64,000 nt of DNA, from contig OZ244048.1 in NCBI GenBank assembly GCA_965215265.1, forward strand, positions 2,112,001-2,176,000. Reading direction: 5' to 3'. Shown piece by piece: positions 820-47,607 of the stretch. The notes beneath the pieces were generated by a model. That model was not told where the DNA came from. It made no database searches and saw only the letters and a program-made list of their open reading frames with translations. Origin of the DNA: Candidatus Poribacteria bacterium. Lineage in GTDB: Bacteria > Poribacteria > WGA-4E > WGA-3G. Every line of letters begins with the position of its first letter. Position 1 is the stretch's first letter. The translations under genes were made by a program, and so were the position numbers.

Positions 820-3800
820 TGTCAGATCCATTTGAAACTTATAAAATCCTTTGTGATTCTTACATTCGTTACATACAAACAATTATGGGTTTCAATGACG
901 AGAAACTCGAAGAAGAACGTGACAAACTACTTCGGAAAAATGGACTGCTTTTCCAAGAACCTCGTTTCGAACCGATTTTTCCTTATCCATCTTCTGGAAA
1001 AACCTTATCCAAGTTGTGCTATGATGTGCAACTCCCCTCTGAACTCGGTCATTTTCTCGCACTCGGAGGCGACGATGGGCTTGCACCTAAAGATCGAAAT
1101 CTCTATCAACACCAAGCGGAAGCAATCAAAGCATCGGTTATTGAAGGAAAGGATGTCGTCGTTACGACTGGGACCGGTTCAGGAAAAACAGAATGCTTTT
1201 TGCTGCCGATCTTCAGTTATCTTATCAAGGAATCACAAAACTGGACTGATTACGGCAGCCGGAATCCCAACCACCCATGGTGGCGTGAACGTGAGAGTAT
1301 AACCGGTAAACGAGTTCCACAACGCCAAGGAGAAAAGCGTCCAGCTGCTATCCGTGCGTTGATTTTGTATCCTCTTAACGCGCTTGTTGAAGACCAACTG
1401 ATGCGGCTTCGGCGCACCTGTGACAGCCCAGGATCGCGCCTGTGGCTTGATAAAAACCGATTAAAGAATCGGTTTTACTTCGGTCGGTATACCGGTTTAA
1501 CCTCGGTTCCCGGCTACGAAAACGCAAGGAACCTCAAAAAACTTCGAGAACAACTTGATAAATTACATAAGCAAACTGAAAAAGTTCGTGATTCGGAGGA
1601 GAAGCGTTATTTCTTCCCTTCAACCGATGTTGATACGGCTGAGATGTGGTCACGGTGGGACATGCAAGAGCATCCACCGGACATTTTAATCACAAACTAT
1701 TCAATGTTGAACATCATGCTCATTCGTGACTTAGAACAACCAATCTTTGAAAAAACCAAAGCATGGCTCGAAAAAGAGGACAGTATTTTTCATCTTGTTG
1801 TTGATGAATTACACGCTTATCGCGGAACAGCAGGATCGGAGGTCGCTTATCTGCTTCGAACACTGTTCGATCGGCTAGGTCTTGAACCCGATTCTCCGAA
1901 AATACGTATCATTGCCTCAAGCGCGTCGCTTGATGGAAATGATGGACATAAGTACCTCCGACAATTTTTTGCCCGAAGTAAAGAATTTGAAATTATTGGT
2001 TCACCTCTGCATCCCGATCAAAGTGATAAACTCCGGGAGTGCCTCACGCACGCCGAACACTTTAATGCATTTGATTCCAATCGAGATTCTGTGCAGCTAG
2101 ATCAAATTCCGAAGGAACTTATCAAATCCGCTGTAGCACAACTGTGCAATCATCATGGAAAATTACACGCTTCAACGATTGGAGAGATGGTTGAAGCTGC
2201 AAATCAGGTTAATCCAACAAAAATCTCCGACGCTACTATCCGTGGGCTCATTCGCTATATAGTTCAGCAGAAGGATCCGGAAGCAACCGGGGCGCTGTTG
2301 CCCTTGCGCGTTCATTACTTTTTCAAAAACTTTGAGGGATTGTGGGCCTGTAGCAATCCAAAGTGTTGTGGCTCTACCCACGACGACACTTCTATTGGTA
2401 AACTGTACGCAACTCAGCGATTTTTGTGTGATGAATGCGGATCTCGAGTATTAGAACTATTAAGTTGTCAAACATGCGGGAACCTCTTTCTCGGAGGATA
2501 TAAACACCAAATCTCTGAGAATTCCCGCGGCTGGTACCTCAGCGGCGACTATCAAGAATTAGAAGGGTTACCCGAAAAAGGAATCAGAAATCGAAACTAT
2601 GAAACTTACGCTATCTTTTGGCAAAGAAAAGAAAAGCCAGATCGACCGCCGTGGCATAAAAATAAGAGACGTTGGGCGCGCGCCCAATTCTCTCCATTCC
2701 GTGGGACACTTATTCCGGACTCATCTGCTGCATACAATGGCCACTTTTACAAGATTGACGATCCTGATGAATCGTGTTCAGAAATTCCCAAGTATTGTCC
2801 CAATTGTGGTGATGCGTGGGATGTTTCTCGGAAAACAACTCTTGTCAATGGCAAAGAGCAAACGTATTCACCGATTCATTATATGGGCACAGGGTTGCAA
2901 AAAGTGATTCAGATCCTCACGCAAACCTTGCAAGCAACTGTCAAAGAGCAATCGAAACGGAAGACCGTCATCTTCTCTGATAGCCGACAGGACGCAGCAA
3001 AATATGCCACTGGAATTCAATGGTCACACTATCAAGATATGGTTCGACTCATCGCCGTTGAAGCAATGAAGGAACAAGAGGACTCCCCTGAATTTTCAAT
3101 TCTGCGTGATTTGCAAAATAAGACGGTTAATCGACTAGAATTCAAAGACTTCCTTATGCTTAGAAAAAAGTTTCCATACGATGAAACACTATTCGCTGAT
3201 CTCTATGAGGGAAAACCTTTGACATCCAGTCAGAAAAACCGACTTGCAGCACTTAGCAGCAATTATCAATTTACAGTTCTACAGAAGGCTTGCTTTGATA
3301 AATTTATCAATCTTGGTATGAATCCCGGAGGCTACGGTGACAAGGTTGATTCTTCTTCGACTCTTGCTAATAACGATAGGGAGGTCTTCCATAAATGGGA
3401 GGAACTCTGTAATTGGGAAACGGATCCTGTCACACTAAAGGAATTACGGTACCTTGAACGACATCAGGAACGCCTTATAGAAAATATTGAGGCTGAACTA
3501 AAAAAAGTGATTGCTGAACGAATCTTGTTCGCACGGAGAGATATGGGTTTAGAGGGACTTGGACTTGCATGGTGTGAACCCAACATGGATCCGGGCAAAT
3601 GGCCCATTGAAGGAATCGATTCTGCAGAAATGATGTCTGCCGTTACCCGAATCCTTGGCGAACGAAGATACACTAAGATTTACCGACCTGATGCTGAACA
3701 AAGGAGCATGCCAAAGTTTATGGATAATTACCTCGTAGATTCGGCAAAGAAAATTGGGTGCTCTCCGGAAAACCTCACAAGTGCAATTAGCAAACAGATT

Positions 3801-6251
3801 GAATCCTCTAATAGTTTTGACAATGACAACTACCTCATCCGCGTTGAAAACCTGAACCTTCGCTTATCTCAGGGAGACAGAATTTTCAGGTGTTCCCAAT
3901 GCAGACGCAAGCACCTTTATAAAGCAGGTGGGATTTGTACAAATACGATGTGCGGCGGCGAATTGGAGGAAATTGATAGCAAATCCGATAAACTAGAGCA
4001 ATATGGAGGCTACTATGCTTATCAAAACCGTCTAGAGCCAAACGGACTTGGAATTCAACCTTACCGTTTCCATTGCGAAGAGTTGACAGCACAAACCGAC
4101 TCGAAAGAACGGCCCAACCGTCAACGTTGGTTTCAAGGAGTTATCCTTGATAATGAAAATCAACGAACGAATGAGATAGATCTTCTCAGCGTAACAACAA
4201 CAATGGAGGCGGGGATTGACATCGGGGCACTCTCAATTGTGTTAATGGGTAATGTCCCTCCACAACGCTTCAACTACCAACAACGTGTTGGGCGCGCAGG
4301 AAGACGAGGCGAATCACTTGCGTATGCCCTCACACTTTGCCGACTGCGTACGCATGACGATCACTACTTTACTCACACAAGCGAGATTACAAACGCAGAA
4401 ACACCCCTGCCATATCTTGATATGCGGAACCAGGATATTCTCAAACGCGTTTTGGCAAAGGAAATTTTATACCACGCCTTCCGGGGCTCAGCAAATGCAG
4501 AAAACGCCAACGTAGAAAATGTCCACGGAAAATTCGGAAAGGTTTCCGATTGGAAAGTCAATCGAGAACAGCTCTCCGAATGGATTCAAGAGCGTTCTCA
4601 TCAAAGCAGAATTAAGCAAATCTTGCAGCTGCTCGCCGCACAGACGGAACCGGGAATCTCGGATAAAATGGAGGAACTGAGAATTTGGGTTATTAACAAC
4701 CTTGTGAAAGAGATTGATAATCGCGTCAAGGAACATCCATTTGAAGAAGACGAACTAAGTCAAGCACTTGCAGAATGCGGCTTGTTGCCAATGTTCGGTT
4801 TTCCTACCGGTGTACGCCTTTTGTACCATGAGCATCCAAAGATTTCAAAGTGGCCACCAACATCAGGTGTCATCGATCGAGATATTGAAATCGCCATTAG
4901 TCAATTTGCCCCCGGTTCAGAGACTATTAAGGATAAAAAGATTCATACCTCAATTGGCCTCGTCTCTTATAAACCGAGGAAAGGTCGTTTAGTCCCTGAA
5001 AACGGTATCGCGAATCGACTACGAATAGGGTTTTGTCGTAAATGCAAAGCAGTTTTCACAAACCTTGGTGAAAACCAAAATAACTGTAAAATCTGCGGAT
5101 CCGAAGAATTCAAGCAGATTGATGGAGTCGAACCTAAAGGTTTTCTTACCAATTTTAATCCAGAAGATGCTCATGAATCTTTTAGTTGGGCACCGAGGGC
5201 AACCTATTCTCGCTTACCTTCTGACTCACCTGTCAACTTGAACAAACACTTCAATTTCCGTTGGGGAACAGAAAGTAAGCTGCAACTGTTCTCAATCAAC
5301 ACCAATGCCGATCAATTATTTGAACTTCAAAAACTGGAAAAAAACGCAGCCCTTGTATCAACCAAAGTCTGTCAGGAGCTAGCTGCAAAAAATGATAGAT
5401 ACGCTTTCAATAAAGAAACGGACGTGACGGGGCCTACAGAGGAAGTAGCACTTTACGCTGCTCGGACGACAGATGTTCTATTAATTGATGTCGATGAAAT
5501 CCCTATCGGTGTTCTAACTGATCAGAGAACGGAATATTGGCGAGCTGCCCTTTATTCCTTTGGTTTTCTATTTCGTCAATTTGCAGCGAGTCAATTGGAC
5601 ATATCTCCTAATGAGCTGCGCGTTGAGATTCGACCAATCTCTTCGGGAGAGAACAGAATTCGTAAACAGCAAATATTTATTGCCGATTCATTAGCAAATG
5701 GGGCAGGATACTGTCGCTATTTAGGTGAACACCATAGTGATGGAAAACCGTTCCGACTGATTGAATTTTTACGCAAGATGATTAATCCAAACATGGATTT
5801 TGCAAAAGGGTTGATGACTCACAGCGGAGATTGTGATTCGTCCTGCTACAGCAAAGGTTGCATGCGGGACTACGCTAACATGCCCTATCATCCCTTTTTG
5901 GACTGGCGTTTAGGATTAGATGTAGCACACCTTTGCCTTGAAAAAGACTATCAGATAGATCTCCAAAAGAACCATTGGGACTCTCTGGTTGATCGAGTAG
6001 AGAAAAACTTCATGGAACTTCTCCCAGGACTTATGCGCAGAGATCGAGATGGTGTAGCTGTTTTTGAAGCACGAGCCCAGAAAAAGGCATTCATCTTGCA
6101 TCATCCTTTGGCATCTGCCGAAGAAGATCGGTTAGGACCTCATATTGCATCTGCTACAAAGGAACTTCATGAAACCGGGTTTAAGGTAGAATACATTAAC
6201 ATCTTTGATGCTATCCGTAGAGTGAGTATCGTGATGAATAAACTTAAATAG
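819..6251 (+). CDS. Large SF2 DEAD/DEAH helicase with C-terminal DUF1998/MrfA Zn domain (Druantia DruE-like), about 1810 aa
   Basis: Walker A TGTGSGKT, YPLNALVEDQ, VVDELH, SAS, QRVGRAGRR; several CxxC pairs; C-terminal DSLANGAGY..CDSSCYSKGC..LDWRLG. GGGAG RBS at 806-810 before ATG 819. Confidence 0.85.
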   Translation: MSDPFETYKILCDSYIRYIQTIMGFNDEKLEEERDKLLRKNGLLFQEPRFEPIFPYPSSGKTLSKLCYDVQLPSELGHFLALGGDDGLAPKDRNLYQHQAEAIKASVIEGKDVVVTTGTGSGKTECFLLPIFSYLIKESQNWTDYGSRNPNHPWWRERESITGKRVPQRQGEKRPAAIRALILYPLNALVEDQLMRLRRTCDSPGSRLWLDKNRLKNRFYFGRYTGLTSVPGYENARNLKKLREQLDKLHKQTEKVRDSEEKRYFFPSTDVDTAEMWSRWDMQEHPPDILITNYSMLNIMLIRDLEQPIFEKTKAWLEKEDSIFHLVVDELHAYRGTAGSEVAYLLRTLFDRLGLEPDSPKIRIIASSASLDGNDGHKYLRQFFARSKEFEIIGSPLHPDQSDKLRECLTHAEHFNAFDSNRDSVQLDQIPKELIKSAVAQLCNHHGKLHASTIGEMVEAANQVNPTKISDATIRGLIRYIVQQKDPEATGALLPLRVHYFFKNFEGLWACSNPKCCGSTHDDTSIGKLYATQRFLCDECGSRVLELLSCQTCGNLFLGGYKHQISENSRGWYLSGDYQELEGLPEKGIRNRNYETYAIFWQRKEKPDRPPWHKNKRRWARAQFSPFRGTLIPDSSAAYNGHFYKIDDPDESCSEIPKYCPNCGDAWDVSRKTTLVNGKEQTYSPIHYMGTGLQKVIQILTQTLQATVKEQSKRKTVIFSDSRQDAAKYATGIQWSHYQDMVRLIAVEAMKEQEDSPEFSILRDLQNKTVNRLEFKDFLMLRKKFPYDETLFADLYEGKPLTSSQKNRLAALSSNYQFTVLQKACFDKFINLGMNPGGYGDKVDSSSTLANNDREVFHKWEELCNWETDPVTLKELRYLERHQERLIENIEAELKKVIAERILFARRDMGLEGLGLAWCEPNMDPGKWPIEGIDSAEMMSAVTRILGERRYTKIYRPDAEQRSMPKFMDNYLVDSAKKIGCSPENLTSAISKQIESSNSFDNDNYLIRVENLNLRLSQGDRIFRCSQCRRKHLYKAGGICTNTMCGGELEEIDSKSDKLEQYGGYYAYQNRLEPNGLGIQPYRFHCEELTAQTDSKERPNRQRWFQGVILDNENQRTNEIDLLSVTTTMEAGIDIGALSIVLMGNVPPQRFNYQQRVGRAGRRGESLAYALTLCRLRTHDDHYFTHTSEITNAETPLPYLDMRNQDILKRVLAKEILYHAFRGSANAENANVENVHGKFGKVSDWKVNREQLSEWIQERSHQSRIKQILQLLAAQTEPGISDKMEELRIWVINNLVKEIDNRVKEHPFEEDELSQALAECGLLPMFGFPTGVRLLYHEHPKISKWPPTSGVIDRDIEIAISQFAPGSETIKDKKIHTSIGLVSYKPRKGRLVPENGIANRLRIGFCRKCKAVFTNLGENQNNCKICGSEEFKQIDGVEPKGFLTNFNPEDAHESFSWAPRATYSRLPSDSPVNLNKHFNFRWGTESKLQLFSINTNADQLFELQKLEKNAALVSTKVCQELAAKNDRYAFNKETDVTGPTEEVALYAARTTDVLLIDVDEIPIGVLTDQRTEYWRAALYSFGFLFRQFAASQLDISPNELRVEIRPISSGENRIRKQQIFIADSLANGAGYCRYLGEHHSDGKPFRLIEFLRKMINPNMDFAKGLMTHSGDCDSSCYSKGCMRDYANMPYHPFLDWRLGLDVAHLCLEKDYQIDLQKNHWDSLVDRVEKNFMELLPGLMRRDRDGVAVFEARAQKKAFILHHPLASAEEDRLGPHIASATKELHETGFKVEYINIFDAIRRVSIVMNKLK

Positions 6252-19527: not shown

Positions 19528-20583
19528 TCAGAATGAATACGATGTTGCCAAAGAAAACAAGCTGCCAATTTTAATCGCATCCCCTTCAGCGTAAAGCGTC
19601 GCTTGAGTTAACGGCAACATGACGTTAGCAGAAACGGAAATCTCATTGGGCATCGCCAAGGCGATACCGAGTGCTGCTACGCTATAACGCAGCCCGGTAT
19701 TGATATCACGCTCTCCAGCCCAAGCCGCTGAAGCTTGGTAAAATCCAAGGTAGTTCCCGGTCACTGAAAGCCACCTGAATGGGCGATACCTAACCCCTAT
19801 CGTATAAGTCAACTCTACTGGACCTCGATAAGTTTTGCTATTTTCATAGACAGGAAACGTGCCACGGCCGGAAGCAGTCAGCGCCATACCTCGATAGAGC
19901 GGGAGGCTGTACTCCAAATTCGCAATCGGGTTAAAGGTACCAGTACCAAACTGGATATGGAGGTGCCTCATACCAGCATCTCCCAGTTTCCAAGGGTTTT
20001 CCTCGGTTTTACCAATCGGAATCGTGGTACCCAACCGGGCAAACAAGATGTCATCCGTTTTAAACAGCCCAGAAATTCTATAGCCTAATAACAGATCCAA
20101 ATCCGAAAATCCGACGTAGGTCTCATTTCTATGATGGATATCTCCATTATCCAAAATAGCTTGCTCATCTTCAGCACTCACTGAACTAAAGAACTCAACA
20201 TGTGCATCTTGATTTTTAATCGCATACGGAACGTTTGCTCGTAACGTCCATTGATGGTTCAGCAAGTATTGTAAACCAACATCAATTCGGTACGTGCTCA
20301 TCTCGACATGGTGTCTATGCTCAGGAACGCGCACAACTTCTCCTGTTGGTGAAAGTCCTTTTTTTGAAAAATGTCCACCTTGTGCATTAGGGGACATCAA
20401 CATATTGACATTAAGGCGAAATTGCCTCATCTCTTTTGAAGTCAAACTGACTTCACCTATCCCGCTCGGCGGCAAGATAGGATTGCTTCATGCAGGGCAG
20501 CTTTCTTGGGTGAACCCAACAGAGATAAAAACCCAATTTAGCAGCATGATGTGTAGGAATAGACTCATTTTCATGTTACGCAT
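19528..20583 (-). CDS. Putative selenoprotein: outer-membrane beta-barrel with N-terminal CxxU motif (351 aa, Sec at codon 32)
   Basis: GGAGG RBS (20594-20590), ATG 20583, signal peptide, then ESCPA-TGA(20490-20488)-SNPILPP in frame with ORF 19528-20475. Amphipathic beta strands, His-rich motifs and a terminal SYSF. Confidence 0.8.
20456..20481 (-). promoter_or_regulatory. Bacterial SECIS-like stem-loop
   Basis: CCUAUCUUGC-CGCCGA-GCGGGAUAGG (10 bp including 2 GU) starts 6 nt after the UGA. The loop is 16 nt from the UGA with G at loop position 2. Confidence 0.7.
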
Positions 20584-20948
20584 TTTAGTCCTCCGAAAAG
20601 TACTTTAACATCAGTTTTATATAAACCGTAGGCATACAGGCTTGAACCGCTTGTGCGGTTGCATGCTGCCATCTCGTCACCACTCTGGAAGCGCACAAAC
20701 CTCCTCTTGAACCCGATGTCCAATTTTACAAAGAAGCACGTTCGCTATCCGGTGGATGCGGAAGGGCTAGCACATGTCACACTATTTTTATTCTTCACTA
20801 TAAATAGCCCTAATAGAACGACAAGCACTATTGCCACCAGACACAGCCCACAGAAAAGTTGCGGACAACGCTCGGCAGCATGCCCTATTTTGCTCGATTT
20901 TAAAATTTGAACCTGAACTCTGATATGAAACGCCACACGCCCAACGCG

Positions 20949-21356
20949 TTAAGAACTGGCGCACGGAGGACCCCGACGGGCTATGGTGTAACGGAGCGAA
21001 ACAGCAAATAGATGTGGAGGGTCAGGAAGAAGGGATGAACTCACAGACGCAGCCGACAAGCAGAACCTATCCTGCTTATACAATTCACCGACTGCAATCT
21101 GAAGAAATTTGGCTCGGGCGGTACTCTCATTTCGATAAATGCACTCAAACTTGGCAAAGCAGCATAACTCTTGACTCTCTGCAGGTACCTCAGATGCATC
21201 CGCGGCATTTCCGCAACACCTCTCGCGGTGTTCCACGCTCGAAGAAGCAGCACGACACAACTTCTGTTCTAAACCCGCACAAAGAAGCGGACATATTGAA
21301 TAGACATACACTATGCCTACAATTAGGATAAGAAACTGCCGGGATTTGGATAACAT
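20949..21356 (-). CDS. Cys-rich exported leader protein ending in RGPP (DUF2946/CruR/CutF-like), 135 aa
   Basis: Hydrophobic N-terminus, ICPLLC, RCC, LCC, Pro-rich segment and C-terminal ARRGPPCASS; upstream of and co-directional with the barrel gene. Confidence 0.7.
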   Translation of the reverse strand: MLSKSRQFLILIVGIVYVYSICPLLCAGLEQKLCRAASSSVEHRERCCGNAADASEVPAESQELCCFAKFECIYRNESTARAKFLQIAVGELYKQDRFCLSAASVSSSLLPDPPHLFAVSLRYTIARRGPPCASS

Positions 21357-21629: not shown

Positions 21630-22592
21630 ATGCCGTATCTCAAAATTCCCAAAAGATGGAACATACCCGAAAAACAGGTAACCCCCGAATCAGATTATAT
21701 CAACCGTCGAACATTTCTCAAAACACTCGGCATAACAAGCGCAGGCGCATTATCGTTGTTCGGCTCAAGCGCTTGTGCCCAAGGAAGTGGCGTTGAAAAA
21801 CAGTTAAAGCCATACCAAGCAGAGGTGCTCCCTGCTGAGAACAATCCGCAGTTTACGGTAAACCGCGCGATGACAGATGAACACGTCGCGGCGACTTACA
21901 ATAACTTCTATGAGTTTACTTCATCCAAATCCAGAGTCTGGAAAATGGTCGACCGGTTCCAAACCCGCCCGTGGGAAATTGAAGTATCCGGCCTCGTAGA
22001 CAAGCCGCAAACCTTCGACATCGACACACTTCTCAAACAGATGCCCCTGGAAGAGCGAATCTATCGGTTCCGATGCGTCGAAACCTGGGCGATGGTGGTA
22101 CCTTGGATCGGATTTCCCATGAGCGCACTGCTAGAGAAAGTGCAACCGACTTCCAAAGCCAAGTACGTCCGAATGGTCACGTTCTTCCGACCTGATGAGG
22201 CACCCGAACAGATGGATCCGCGTAGCCCGTGGCCCTACTATGAAGGATTGACGATCGAGGAAGCCATGAACAAACTCACCCTCATCGTTGTCGGTATCTA
22301 TGGGCACATACTGCCACCGCAGCACGGCGCACCGCTCCGGCTAATTGCACCCTGGAAATACGGTTTTAAAAGCATCAAATCAATCGTTAGCATTGAGTTG
22401 ACAGACCGGAAGCCGCGCACCTTTTGGAATACCATTTTTCCACGTGAATACGATTTTGAGGCAAACGTCAACCCCAACGTCCCCCATCCGCGCTGGTCAC
22501 AGGCACAGGAACGCATGATTGGCACAGGTGAAAGACATCCGACAGTCATTTACAACGGTTATGGGCCAGAAGTCGCACACCTTTACAAGTAG
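21630..22592 (+). CDS. msrP: Protein-methionine-sulfoxide reductase catalytic subunit MsrP
   Basis: Tat motif NRRTFLK, YNNFYEF, RFRCVETW, PWKYGFKSIKSIV, HPRWSQA, YNGY. Confidence 0.95.
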   Translation: MPYLKIPKRWNIPEKQVTPESDYINRRTFLKTLGITSAGALSLFGSSACAQGSGVEKQLKPYQAEVLPAENNPQFTVNRAMTDEHVAATYNNFYEFTSSKSRVWKMVDRFQTRPWEIEVSGLVDKPQTFDIDTLLKQMPLEERIYRFRCVETWAMVVPWIGFPMSALLEKVQPTSKAKYVRMVTFFRPDEAPEQMDPRSPWPYYEGLTIEEAMNKLTLIVVGIYGHILPPQHGAPLRLIAPWKYGFKSIKSIVSIELTDRKPRTFWNTIFPREYDFEANVNPNVPHPRWSQAQERMIGTGERHPTVIYNGYGPEVAHLYK

Positions 22593-46224: not shown

Positions 46225-47607
46225 ATGTCCACGTACGACGTTGGAATTATCGGAGGGGGTCCCGGCGGTTACGTCGCTGCGATTAAAGCGGCGCAGATGG
46301 GGGGCACAGTCTGCCTTATAGAAAAAGGAGCATGGGGTGGCACGTGTCTCAATCGGGGATGTATCCCGACTAAAACTCTCTTTTCGGTGGCTTCACTCGC
46401 CACCCATGTTCAGGAGGCCGCCGCTTTCGGGCTACAGATTAAGGAATCAGCAATTGATTACGCACAGGTACTCGCACACAAAGACGCTGTCGTCCAGCGG
46501 TTGACAGGAGGCATCGCGCAACTGCTGAAGGGCAATGAGGTTAATACTCTTAACGGCACCGCAACACTCACCGACAAAAACACGATTGCTGTTAATAAAC
46601 CAGACGGCACCACCGAAGAGGTGCATGCCAAAAATGTCATTATCGCTACAGGCTCCGACCCGGCTGAGCCGCCTGTTTTTGAAATTGATGAAACTCACGT
46701 CTTGACGACAACAGGCATTCTAAATCTTACTGCACTCCCTGAAAGCCTGATTATTGTTGGCGCTGGCGTTTCCGGGTGCGAATTTGCCTCTATCTTTAAC
46801 GCCCTCGGTTGCCGCGTCACTGTACTAGAACTCCTACCTACCATTCTGTCGACGGAAGATGTTCACGTTATTCGCCACATTCAACTTTTCATGAAACGAA
46901 AAGGAATTAATATCCACACGCAGGCGAAACTTGACCACGTTAAAAAAACAGAAACACGCGTTACCGCAGTACTTGAATCTGGAGAGGAATTAACCGCAGA
47001 AAAAATTCTTATCTCGATCGGACGGCATTTTAATACAACCGGTATCGGCTTAGAAAACGTTGGAATTCGGACAGATAACGGGAAAATTCGGGTGAATGCA
47101 CAGATGCAGACAACTCTTCCGGGTATCTACGCCGTTGGGGATGTCGCCAGTCGATACTTGTTAGCACACGTAGCATCGGCCGAGGGAAAGGTAGCAGCGC
47201 AAAACAGTTTGGGGAAAACCGCTACAATGGACTATCAGGTGATTCCATGGTGTGTTTTCACACTGCCCGAAATTGGACGGGTCGGCATGACAGAAAAAGA
47301 GGCAACTGATGAAGGCTATAAGGTGCAAGTCGGGAGATTTCCGTATACAGCAAACGGAATGGCGTTGGGGATGCGAGAGACTGATGGCTTTGTGAAAACC
47401 GTCGCCGATACTGATAGCGGAGATATTCTCGGTGTCCATATCGTCGGTGCACATGCCTCAATCCTTATCCATGAGGCAGCAGTAGCGATTCGTTCAGGCG
47501 CAACTGTGACAGACCTCGCAGATACTGTGCATGCCCACCCAACCCTCGCAGAATTGGTGATGGAATCGGCTGAGGCAGCCTACGGAAAAGCCATCCACAG
47601 CCTTTAA
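46225..47607 (+). CDS. lpdA: Dihydrolipoyl dehydrogenase
   Basis: GGGPGGY, GGTCLNRGCIPTK, HAHPTLAE. Confidence 0.96.
   Translation: MSTYDVGIIGGGPGGYVAAIKAAQMGGTVCLIEKGAWGGTCLNRGCIPTKTLFSVASLATHVQEAAAFGLQIKESAIDYAQVLAHKDAVVQRLTGGIAQLLKGNEVNTLNGTATLTDKNTIAVNKPDGTTEEVHAKNVIIATGSDPAEPPVFEIDETHVLTTTGILNLTALPESLIIVGAGVSGCEFASIFNALGCRVTVLELLPTILSTEDVHVIRHIQLFMKRKGINIHTQAKLDHVKKTETRVTAVLESGEELTAEKILISIGRHFNTTGIGLENVGIRTDNGKIRVNAQMQTTLPGIYAVGDVASRYLLAHVASAEGKVAAQNSLGKTATMDYQVIPWCVFTLPEIGRVGMTEKEATDEGYKVQVGRFPYTANGMALGMRETDGFVKTVADTDSGDILGVHIVGAHASILIHEAAVAIRSGATVTDLADTVHAHPTLAELVMESAEAAYGKAIHSL

Follow-up and report, generated by a model that had tools for sequence, protein, structure and literature searches.

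The window, as the stretch of DNA analysed here is called, comprises 64,000 nucleotides of Candidatus Poribacteria bacterium (assembly GCA_965215265.1, contig OZ244048.1, positions 2,112,001 to 2,176,000 of the forward strand), and its minus strand carries a gene that is interrupted in frame by a single TGA codon (19528..20583). Comparison with related sequences indicates with high confidence that this TGA, codon 32, is decoded as selenocysteine (Sec, written U in motifs) and that the gene is a real selenoprotein gene. The fuller reading, that the product is an exported outer-membrane beta-barrel whose tail carries Sec32, is considered quite likely; the tail may serve a thiol-loving metal. The source is a sponge-associated bacterium, the family is widespread, and its Cys-containing relatives are found in mercury-resistance operons.

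The features of the gene can be read directly in the sequence (Table 1). The open reading frame (ORF) list made with translation table 11 starts the gene at a TTG (19528..20475, 315 aa), and the signal peptide is thereby lost, as the initial annotation had pointed out. The upstream elements named in that annotation are also present, namely a GGAGG ribosome-binding site, an ATG at 20583, and an in-frame TGA at 20490-20488 (codon 32), which is the sole interruption before the terminal TGA at 19530-19528. The N-terminus reads M-R-N-M-K, a hydrophobic stretch, and then G-F-T / Q-E-S-C-P-A-[TGA]-S-N-P. The signal peptide is probably cleaved before Q-E-S, a site that was read off the sequence rather than taken from a prediction program, and the same layout, ending in G-F-A / Q-E-S, is found in all 50 listed related loci. 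The translated frame contains the His clusters EHRHH, DIHHR, and RHLH as well as the C-terminal Phe that had been noticed before.

The TGA codon is conserved among the relatives of the gene. The frame runs upstream through the stop into the signal peptide in all 25 first-round genome loci that include the N-terminus, and the stop is TGA in each of them. Codon 32 is TGA in 52 of 52 related genome loci, which include paralogues and other families of the phylum, while codon 29 in the same loci is Cys (TGY) in 25 and TGA in 27, the latter corresponding to a UxxU motif. Relatives with as little as 38-44% identity still have the in-frame TGA, as do those in other phyla, and tblastn and HMMER matches in relatives cross it over residues 1-351. 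A scan of metagenomes returned 80 loci, and among loci L075-L159 the motif was present in 76 rows (48 UxxU, 3 CxxU, and 25 CxxC), with TGA at codon 32 in 51 rows and Cys in the remaining 25; the 9 rows that have no motif include some that are visibly cut short and L078, which lies on the opposite strand. The family is present on many contigs from marine metagenomes. Distant full-length proteins feature C-P-A-C-S-N-P or A-C-A-A-C-G-N-P straight after the signal peptide, and the relatives from Bacteroidota have Cys at both motif positions (CPAC). An alignment of 78 mature proteins (A5) revealed that positions 29 and 32 as well as A31, N34, and P35 are invariant, which gives the motif [C/U]-x-A-[C/U]-x-N-P. 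The initial annotation had named, as support, homologues with Cys or an in-frame TGA at position 32 and conserved sequence on both flanks, and such homologues were found. On this comparative sequence evidence the conservation of the TGA is beyond chance. A pseudogene or a sequencing error had been considered as well, and both are ruled out by the conservation.

In public gene calls the TGA is treated as a stop. A search of protein collections found 548 relatives, and the 120 that are listed are all truncated at the N-terminus with at most 88% query coverage; most of these are 310 aa long, with the first residue just past the TGA. These gene calls and the table-11 ORF list agree with a true stop, in which case the gene would start at TTG 20475 or later and the upstream 31 codons would be a chance frame or a separate mini-ORF. 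This explanation is extremely improbable. It would leave an outer-membrane barrel without a signal peptide, and the signal peptide of the family lies solely upstream of the TGA. It is also at odds with the conservation, in frame, of the upstream codons, the motif, and the TGA itself across all 52 loci and into other phyla, and with the Cys relatives, which read straight through the motif. The start points of the truncated calls vary, are poorly conserved, and look arbitrary.

The genome encodes a complete Sec machinery. Matches were found for selA (588.6 bits), selB (336.5 bits), selD (359.6 bits), and tRNA-Sec (80 bits; ARAGORN reports SeC with the anticodon TCA), all above their curated cut-offs, so that the four genes whose presence the initial annotation had proposed to look for, selA, selB, selC, and selD, are all accounted for. 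The tRNA-Sec gene adjoins selB, directly after it, about 30 kb before the window (L001/L038, G000:C1:2079562-2081610). The selD gene (L046, G000:C1:4044300-4045226) has an in-frame TGA of its own and therefore encodes a Sec-containing SelD. The mechanism of Sec insertion is the ordinary bacterial route. In two genomes of Acidobacteriota with the UxxU form, selA scores 550.5 and 536.8 bits, and tRNA-Sec is found with 72.9 and 71.6 bits, all above the cut-offs. In three genomes of Bacteroidota with the CxxC form a selA match is absent and tRNA-Sec is at most borderline (47.6 bits, cut-off 47). Across the five genomes tested, the Sec machinery thus co-occurs with the TGA forms and was not found with the Cys forms.

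A readthrough of the TGA as Trp, Cys, or Arg, by a reassigned code or by near-cognate suppression, is very unlikely. It draws on two database proteins, P0177 and P0184, that have Trp at the motif. The initial annotation had named Trp, Arg, or Gly in homologues as an observation that would speak against Sec, and Trp was found in these two proteins. The DNA of metagenome locus L093, which is nearly identical, is TGA at both motif positions of P0184, and for this reason the Trp letters are most likely an effect of gene calling in which TGA was translated under a table that reads it as Trp (table-4 type). In addition, TGA is the terminal stop, directly following the conserved C-terminal residue, in 10 of 25 CxxU genes and in 16 of 60 UxxU genes, and it also ends the window gene itself. 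TGA is not reassigned in these organisms, because it also terminates many of the same genes. The complete Sec machinery that accompanies the TGA forms and the alternation with Cys at both motif positions, which is a classic signature of Sec, also argue against another residue.

The RNA downstream of the TGA can fold into two consecutive hairpins, of which the first is a probable selenocysteine insertion sequence (SECIS). The initial annotation had described a 10-bp hairpin that begins 6 nt past the TGA, and the sequence bears this out; the loop begins 16 nt past the UGA, and its second nucleotide is G. The 71-nt stretch folds with -24.3 kcal/mol (z = -2.71), and 2 of 200 shuffles fold as well. 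When every Sec form was folded singly, a hairpin was found approximately 4-15 nt past the second UGA, with sequences that differ widely between clades. Fold energies were calculated for the 60 nt after codon 32, and a hairpin was counted when a contiguous stem of at least 6 bp began 4-20 nt downstream. The CxxU forms (n = 26) have a mean of -20.3 kcal/mol (z -2.95, GC content 0.50) and a hairpin in 18 of 26 (0.25 in shuffles); the UxxU forms (n = 63) have a mean of -21.0 kcal/mol (z -2.58, GC 0.54) and a hairpin in 57 of 63 (shuffles 0.23); the CxxC forms (n = 17) have a mean of -12.2 kcal/mol (z -1.29, GC 0.45) and a hairpin in 7 of 17 (shuffles 0.15). Taken together, 75 of 89 Sec forms have such a hairpin, compared with about 24% of shuffles.

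Covariation was determined on an alignment of 48 sequences. RNAalifold returned a single consensus helix, which is hairpin 2 only, and hairpin 1 was for this reason tested as named registers. Hairpin 2 shows compensatory changes in 5 of 8 pairs with 97.1% of cells paired, as in pair 57-63 (CG in 39, UA in 8) and pair 58-62 (AU in 39, GC in 6). When a shared 6-bp register of hairpin 1 is combined with hairpin 2, 94.4% of cells are paired and 8 of 14 pairs have compensatory changes; this was reached by 0 of 500 shuffles, and slid controls pair 28-53%. Between the second UGA and the loop of hairpin 1 there are approximately 12-22 nt, and the distance to the first UGA is 21-31 nt. Hairpin 2 is conserved in Poribacteria and Acidobacteriota (alignment A3, columns 51-69) and is missing in several distant clades of Sec forms. 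Hairpin 1 is the likelier SECIS judging from these foldings, because it is present in all clades whereas hairpin 2 is missing in several distant ones. In one distant clade the UGA is followed by 11 nt and an 8-bp stem with a GGUC loop, an arrangement that presumably resembles the E. coli fdhF element.

The structure of the protein was predicted with AlphaFold2. The first run, with 48 relatives, gave a mean predicted local distance difference test score (pLDDT) of 88.1 and a predicted template modelling score (pTM) of 0.83, and features 12 strands and two short loop helices. For the mature protein, aligned with 78 full-length relatives in a second run, the pLDDT was 87.3 and the pTM 0.84. Foldseek matched the model to FapF (E 7e-13) and to the COG4313 channel 4RL8 (E 6e-11), then to FadL/TodX-type barrels, and all matches are outer-membrane barrels. 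The outer-membrane barrel proposed in the initial annotation therefore agrees with a confident model, and the protein combines the signal-peptide layout, a closed predicted barrel, and a C-terminal aromatic residue. The Pfam family PF13557 (Phenol_MetA_deg) matches residues 213-311 with 19.7 bits (E 0.00098), below the gathering cut-off of 22. No NCBIfam model matched the window protein at E <= 1, the Cys relative P0125 at E <= 0.001, or the UxxU paralogue at E <= 1e-5, and no relative of the barrel turned up among solved structures in a profile search. Six His residues are invariant in the 78-sequence alignment (H71, H91, H150, H151, H207, and H209 in precursor numbering), and their conservation suggests a metal site. 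From strand parity in the secondary-structure string of the model, these residues would be located on long loops or at the loop-side ends of strands 1 and 2.

In a census of the phylum, 140 of 176 genomes had a family match, among them all 111 genomes of the bacterial family to which the window belongs. Most of the matching Poribacteria genomes contain a pair of copies, of which one has 1 TGA at about 70% identity and the other 2 TGA at about 54%. Among the 150 listed phylum matches, every one that extends into the N-terminal region has 1-3 in-frame TGA, and the two listed matches with no TGA begin at query residue 64 or 71. A third in-frame TGA is seen in L067 (G119:C5), a UxxU paralogue, at a place where relatives have Trp (M-M-R-[TGA]-F-D-A); the codon may have changed from TGG to TGA, or the TGA may reflect a sequencing error or a decaying copy. 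The two-TGA paralogue of the window genome has the motif U-G-A-U, is 54-57% identical, and lies outside the window (G000:C1:1352758-1353768; on the minus strand of L074 at 3696-4706, about G000:C1:1352695-1353705). An aldo-keto reductase gene is found upstream of this paralogue in its orthologous loci. In Bacteroidota a relative was found in 3 of 301 sampled genomes. One of these (G290) had been scored with 1 TGA and was rejected as a Sec form; it has a plain CxxC motif, and the TGA is a stop codon just upstream of the start of the barrel gene.

A quick maximum-likelihood tree of 102 proteins, with support from the SH-like approximate likelihood ratio test (SH-aLRT) only and with a midpoint root, groups the CxxC forms in one clade (17 rows, support 100). 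The UxxU forms are spread across the remainder, and CxxU arises at least 3 times within UxxU groups. The window protein belongs to a clade of 21 CxxU rows (support 100) whose sister group is formed by UxxU paralogues from its own bacterial family; the two groups combined make 45 rows (support 99). As the root is a midpoint root, a direction for the change between Sec and Cys can only be proposed. The window copy would be a duplicate of the UxxU form that is still present in the genome, in which the first Sec was then replaced by Cys. No stretch of the 48-sequence alignment is conserved enough to serve as a locus query, and single proteins and a narrower alignment were used.

The genes that accompany the barrel gene in other phyla point to metals. 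The immediately upstream ORF on the same strand was determined for 41 loci. It encodes a protein with both an HMA and a thioredoxin domain in 19 loci, thioredoxin only in 5, MerT-HMA in 1, an aldo-keto reductase in 4, an M56 peptidase in 2, a product with no family (small Cys-rich type) in 8, and another product in 2. The HMA-thioredoxin proteins feature a signal peptide, the HMA motif GM[ST]Cxx[CS], and the thioredoxin motif WCGPC. MerA is found upstream in L075 and L112 with 501.2 and 493.1 bits, above the NCBIfam equivalog cut-off of 454.45, and a MerTP fusion is found in L102 with 273.2 bits against a cut-off of 180. These are loci of Cys relatives, which lie in mer operons, whereas the window gene does not. 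MerT-HMA is present in L078 and L106 and MerC in L136, and further neighbours are CsoR-type and ArsR regulators, a ZIP transporter, and RND pumps. Upstream of the UxxU barrel in L136, the gene at 551-1312 has a domain of the NF049942 'DF family (seleno)protein' model (55 bits, cut-off 70) in addition to a weak match to MerC. In distant relatives, C-terminal fusions of the barrel are found with thioredoxin (P0194, P0207, P0227, P0238, P0245, P0247, P0248, P0265, and P0268) and with HMA (P0132). Two of the nine thioredoxin-fused relatives also carry a cupredoxin domain, and several fused relatives show His-rich linkers. Many of the fused relatives start with no signal peptide and may be truncated gene calls themselves.

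Metal handling is the best-supported function of the family, a conclusion given about even chances, because of the HMA-thioredoxin partners, the mer-type neighbours, the metal regulators and pumps, and the domain fusions in other phyla. Mercury is the favoured metal where mer genes adjoin. For the window copy a metal role would follow by homology, from neighbours in other phyla. The initial annotation had suggested a channel for metal uptake or one that is redox-gated; the metal half of this suggestion gains indirect support from the mer-type neighbours elsewhere, and the window itself contributes no mer neighbours to it. A more specific proposal, less likely than not, is that the barrel is the missing outer-membrane part of mercury or soft-metal trafficking. 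One or two Sec residues on its flexible tail would then be the first ligand, of very high affinity, for Hg(II) or Cu(I) at the cell surface, and the metal would be relayed to HMA-thioredoxin or Cys-rich partners in the periplasm and on to MerT/MerA.

The window gene is flanked by unrelated genes on the plus strand. By tblastn, 22 of 26 loci have a small Cys-rich gene immediately ahead of the barrel gene; no Pfam or NCBIfam model matched its product, which is a possible partner of the barrel. Small proteins of a similar Cys-rich kind are encoded ahead of the barrel gene in other clades (L069, L086, L100, L122, L135, L141, and L154). Divergent from the barrel locus is the gene of the methionine sulfoxide reductase MsrP, an arrangement that close relatives share in at least 11 loci. 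The gene downstream of MsrP encodes a peptidase MA. A pyridine nucleotide-disulfide oxidoreductase is encoded at 46234-47574 of the window (plus strand); it scores 364.7 bits on the MerA model, whose cut-off is 454, and is probably dihydrolipoyl dehydrogenase and not MerA. The genome has five HMA domains, and three of these lie within frames that contain one in-frame TGA. The three frames (L164, L165, and L166; G000:C1:2909995-2910590 and 3280315-3280491), two of which are in tandem, probably encode further metal-binding selenoproteins.

Table 1. Positions of the barrel gene, its RNA and protein features, and its neighbours in the window.
Feature	Position	Strand	Description
Selenoprotein precursor, coding sequence	19528..20583	minus	351 residues and terminal TGA stop; codon 32 probably Sec
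Ribosome-binding site GGAGG	20590..20594	minus	6-nt spacer to ATG 20583-20581; read directly in the sequence
Signal peptide (probable), residues 1-25	20509..20583	minus	basic start, hydrophobic core, small residues ahead of Q-E-S
C-P-A-U motif	20488..20499	minus	Cys29 20499-20497, Sec32 (TGA) 20490-20488; residues 4-7 of the putative mature protein
Hairpin 1, probable SECIS	20456..20481	minus	10 bp (20481-20472 / 20465-20456), 6-nt loop CGCCGA, starts 6 nt past the UGA
Hairpin 2	20437..20455	minus	8 bp (20455-20448 / 20444-20437), 3-nt loop, directly after hairpin 1
Predicted 12-strand beta-barrel, residues 55-351	19531..20421	minus	AlphaFold2; C-terminal Phe
Small Cys-rich upstream gene	20949..21356	minus	about 135 aa, one N-terminal membrane helix; C-P-x-L-C, C, CC, CC; C-terminal R-G-P-P
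MsrP, periplasmic protein-methionine-sulfoxide reductase catalytic subunit	21630-22592	plus	428.6 bits against a cut-off of 207

Several observations weigh against the reading of the gene as an exported selenoprotein with a metal-binding tail. The assignment of the SECIS rests on folding and covariation. The region is rich in Pro and Gly codons, which pair mutually, and the protein sequence may therefore supply part of the complementarity. Hairpin 1 has no single register that is common to all members, the 10-bp register of the window pairing 81.5% of cells. Seven of the 17 Cys forms have a hairpin too, and the Cys forms are one clade of lower GC content, so that the difference in fold energy is confounded with lineage. 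In both structural models the tail is unplaced (residues 21-50 and the first 26 mature residues, respectively, with pLDDT below 50), so that neither model shows the tail touching the His residues; the side of the membrane that the tail would face is taken from the usual topology of such barrels. In the window, mer, HMA, and thioredoxin neighbours of the barrel gene are absent, and the genome has no MerA above the cut-off (the best matches have 377.6 and 364.7 bits against 454). The conserved divergent neighbour, MsrP, is a periplasmic repair enzyme and also fits a redox function.

Such a function, in which the Cys-Sec tail acts as a scavenger of peroxide or hypochlorite or as a redox gate of the channel and is recycled by thioredoxin-like partners, is regarded as rather unlikely. 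It agrees with the CxxU and UxxU motifs, which are typical of redox selenoproteins (PMC13188914, table), with the thioredoxin genes or fused thioredoxin domains that accompany the family, and with MsrP in Poribacteria. The link to MsrP is seen only in close relatives, however, where a shared gene order is expected, and the thioredoxin partner also carries an HMA domain in 19 of 24 cases. The recurrent neighbours are MerA, MerTP, MerC, metal-sensing regulators, and metal pumps, and these, together with the HMA and cupredoxin fusions, the His-rich linkers, and the six invariant His, speak for a metal rather than for redox chemistry.

A selenoprotein barrel that takes up or exports a soft element other than mercury, such as copper or a selenium or tellurium species, is possible though doubtful. 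The cupredoxin fusions, the RND pumps, and the YHS-domain genes that neighbour the barrel gene in L080 (directly after it) and in L088 fit copper, and the lack of a MerA above the cut-off in the window genome is in line with an element other than mercury. No YHS-domain gene was found after the window gene or elsewhere in its genome. The only neighbours identified at the equivalog level, however, are the mercury genes MerA and MerTP.

For the reading preferred here, a Sec-bearing tail that handles a thiol-loving metal, the following sequence of events is proposed. SelB and Sec-tRNA(Sec) very probably decode UGA 32, guided by the hairpin just downstream. Removal of the 25-residue signal peptide would leave a mature protein that starts with Q-E-S-C-P-A-U-S-N-P. 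Its flexible tail of about 28 residues bears the Cys-x-x-Sec pair, and the rest is predicted to form a FapF/COG4313-type barrel with 12 strands. The selenolate/thiolate pair of the tail may bind a thiol-loving metal, for instance Hg(II) or perhaps Cu(I), as it enters or meets the barrel; by ligand exchange the metal would then be handed to Cys-rich partners in the periplasm. In other phyla this role would fall to the HMA-thioredoxin protein, which could also maintain the pair in its reduced state, with MerT/MerC and MerA coming next. For Poribacteria a candidate partner is the small membrane protein, rich in Cys, whose gene lies just upstream.

New here are the protein family, the place where the protein is located, and the mer-type genes that accompany it. 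Table 1 of the 2026 review on the prokaryotic selenoproteome (PMC13188914) has 119 families, and the barrel family is not among them. The main text of the BSepDB paper (111 families) does not contain the terms 'outer membrane', 'barrel', or 'Poribacteria', although its supplement (Table S2), like the sources of the review, could have the family under a different name. The initial annotation had not placed the protein in a characterised selenoprotein family, which is consistent with NCBIfam, Table 1 of PMC13188914, and the main text of the BSepDB paper. At the level of titles and abstracts, the literature on Poribacteria and selenoproteins yielded nothing related, no description of a Sec outer-membrane barrel of this kind was found, and no outer-membrane beta-barrel component of the mer operon was found. 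Figure legends of two reviews of the mer system use broken arrows for diffusion and leave an outer-membrane protein unmentioned, and the available part of the preprint by Haft and Gwadz mentions the outer membrane solely in a general argument.

The family would add a widespread member to the bacterial selenoproteome that has been missed by annotation, every listed database protein being truncated at the N-terminus. It puts Sec, frequently as a pair spaced three positions apart, on a protein exported to the outer membrane, for which Table 1 of PMC13188914 has only two families. The Cys relatives within merA/merTP operons are candidates for a dedicated outer-membrane step in mercury handling, and the UxxU, CxxU, and CxxC forms provide a natural series on the preference for selenium over sulfur at a metal or redox site. 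If the proposal is true, a selenium-based relay of metal across the outer membrane would be widespread in marine and sponge-associated bacteria and hidden by the truncation of gene calls at the TGA.

The best structural matches among known proteins are the COG4313/PF13557 channel (4RL8) and the FapF barrel (5O65/5O67), with a TM score of 0.55-0.66 for FapF, although the sequence identity to FapF and COG4313 is just 11-14%. The barrels of the FapF and COG4313 families are, as we take it, plugged by an N-terminal segment; the tail of the window protein is unplaced in the models. A precomputed PF13557 match is present in 5 of the 120 listed relatives, and the match of the window protein is sub-threshold. 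Neither family is among the selenoproteins of PMC13188914 Table 1. The only outer-membrane selenoproteins in that table are the GSU2204/MtrB-PioB barrel (NF041027) and the FCYXU TonB-dependent receptor (NF049945), which is also named in the available part of PMC9312934. Both models describe outer-membrane selenoproteins like the one in the window, NF049945 with a CxxU motif as well, but they represent different protein families. NF041027 is presumably a far larger barrel that serves as an electron conduit, and NF049945 a receptor that we take to have 22 strands.

A second group of known proteins shares the motif and the company of the family rather than its fold. NF041115 (UxxU metal-binding), MerP, MerT, and CopZ resemble the barrel family in a paired [C/U]xx[C/U] motif of the metal type and in the company of mer genes. 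The models of these proteins are matched weakly by the neighbours of the family and not by the barrel. They are small soluble ferredoxin-like domains or inner-membrane proteins, whereas here the motif is located on the disordered tail of an outer-membrane barrel. On the RNA level, the feature shared with the SECIS of the E. coli fdhF type, whose geometry is presumed for this comparison, is a hairpin directly 3' of the UGA. The barrel family differs from it in that one element serves two UGA codons 9 nt apart in most members, and in that a second hairpin is conserved in Poribacteria and Acidobacteriota.

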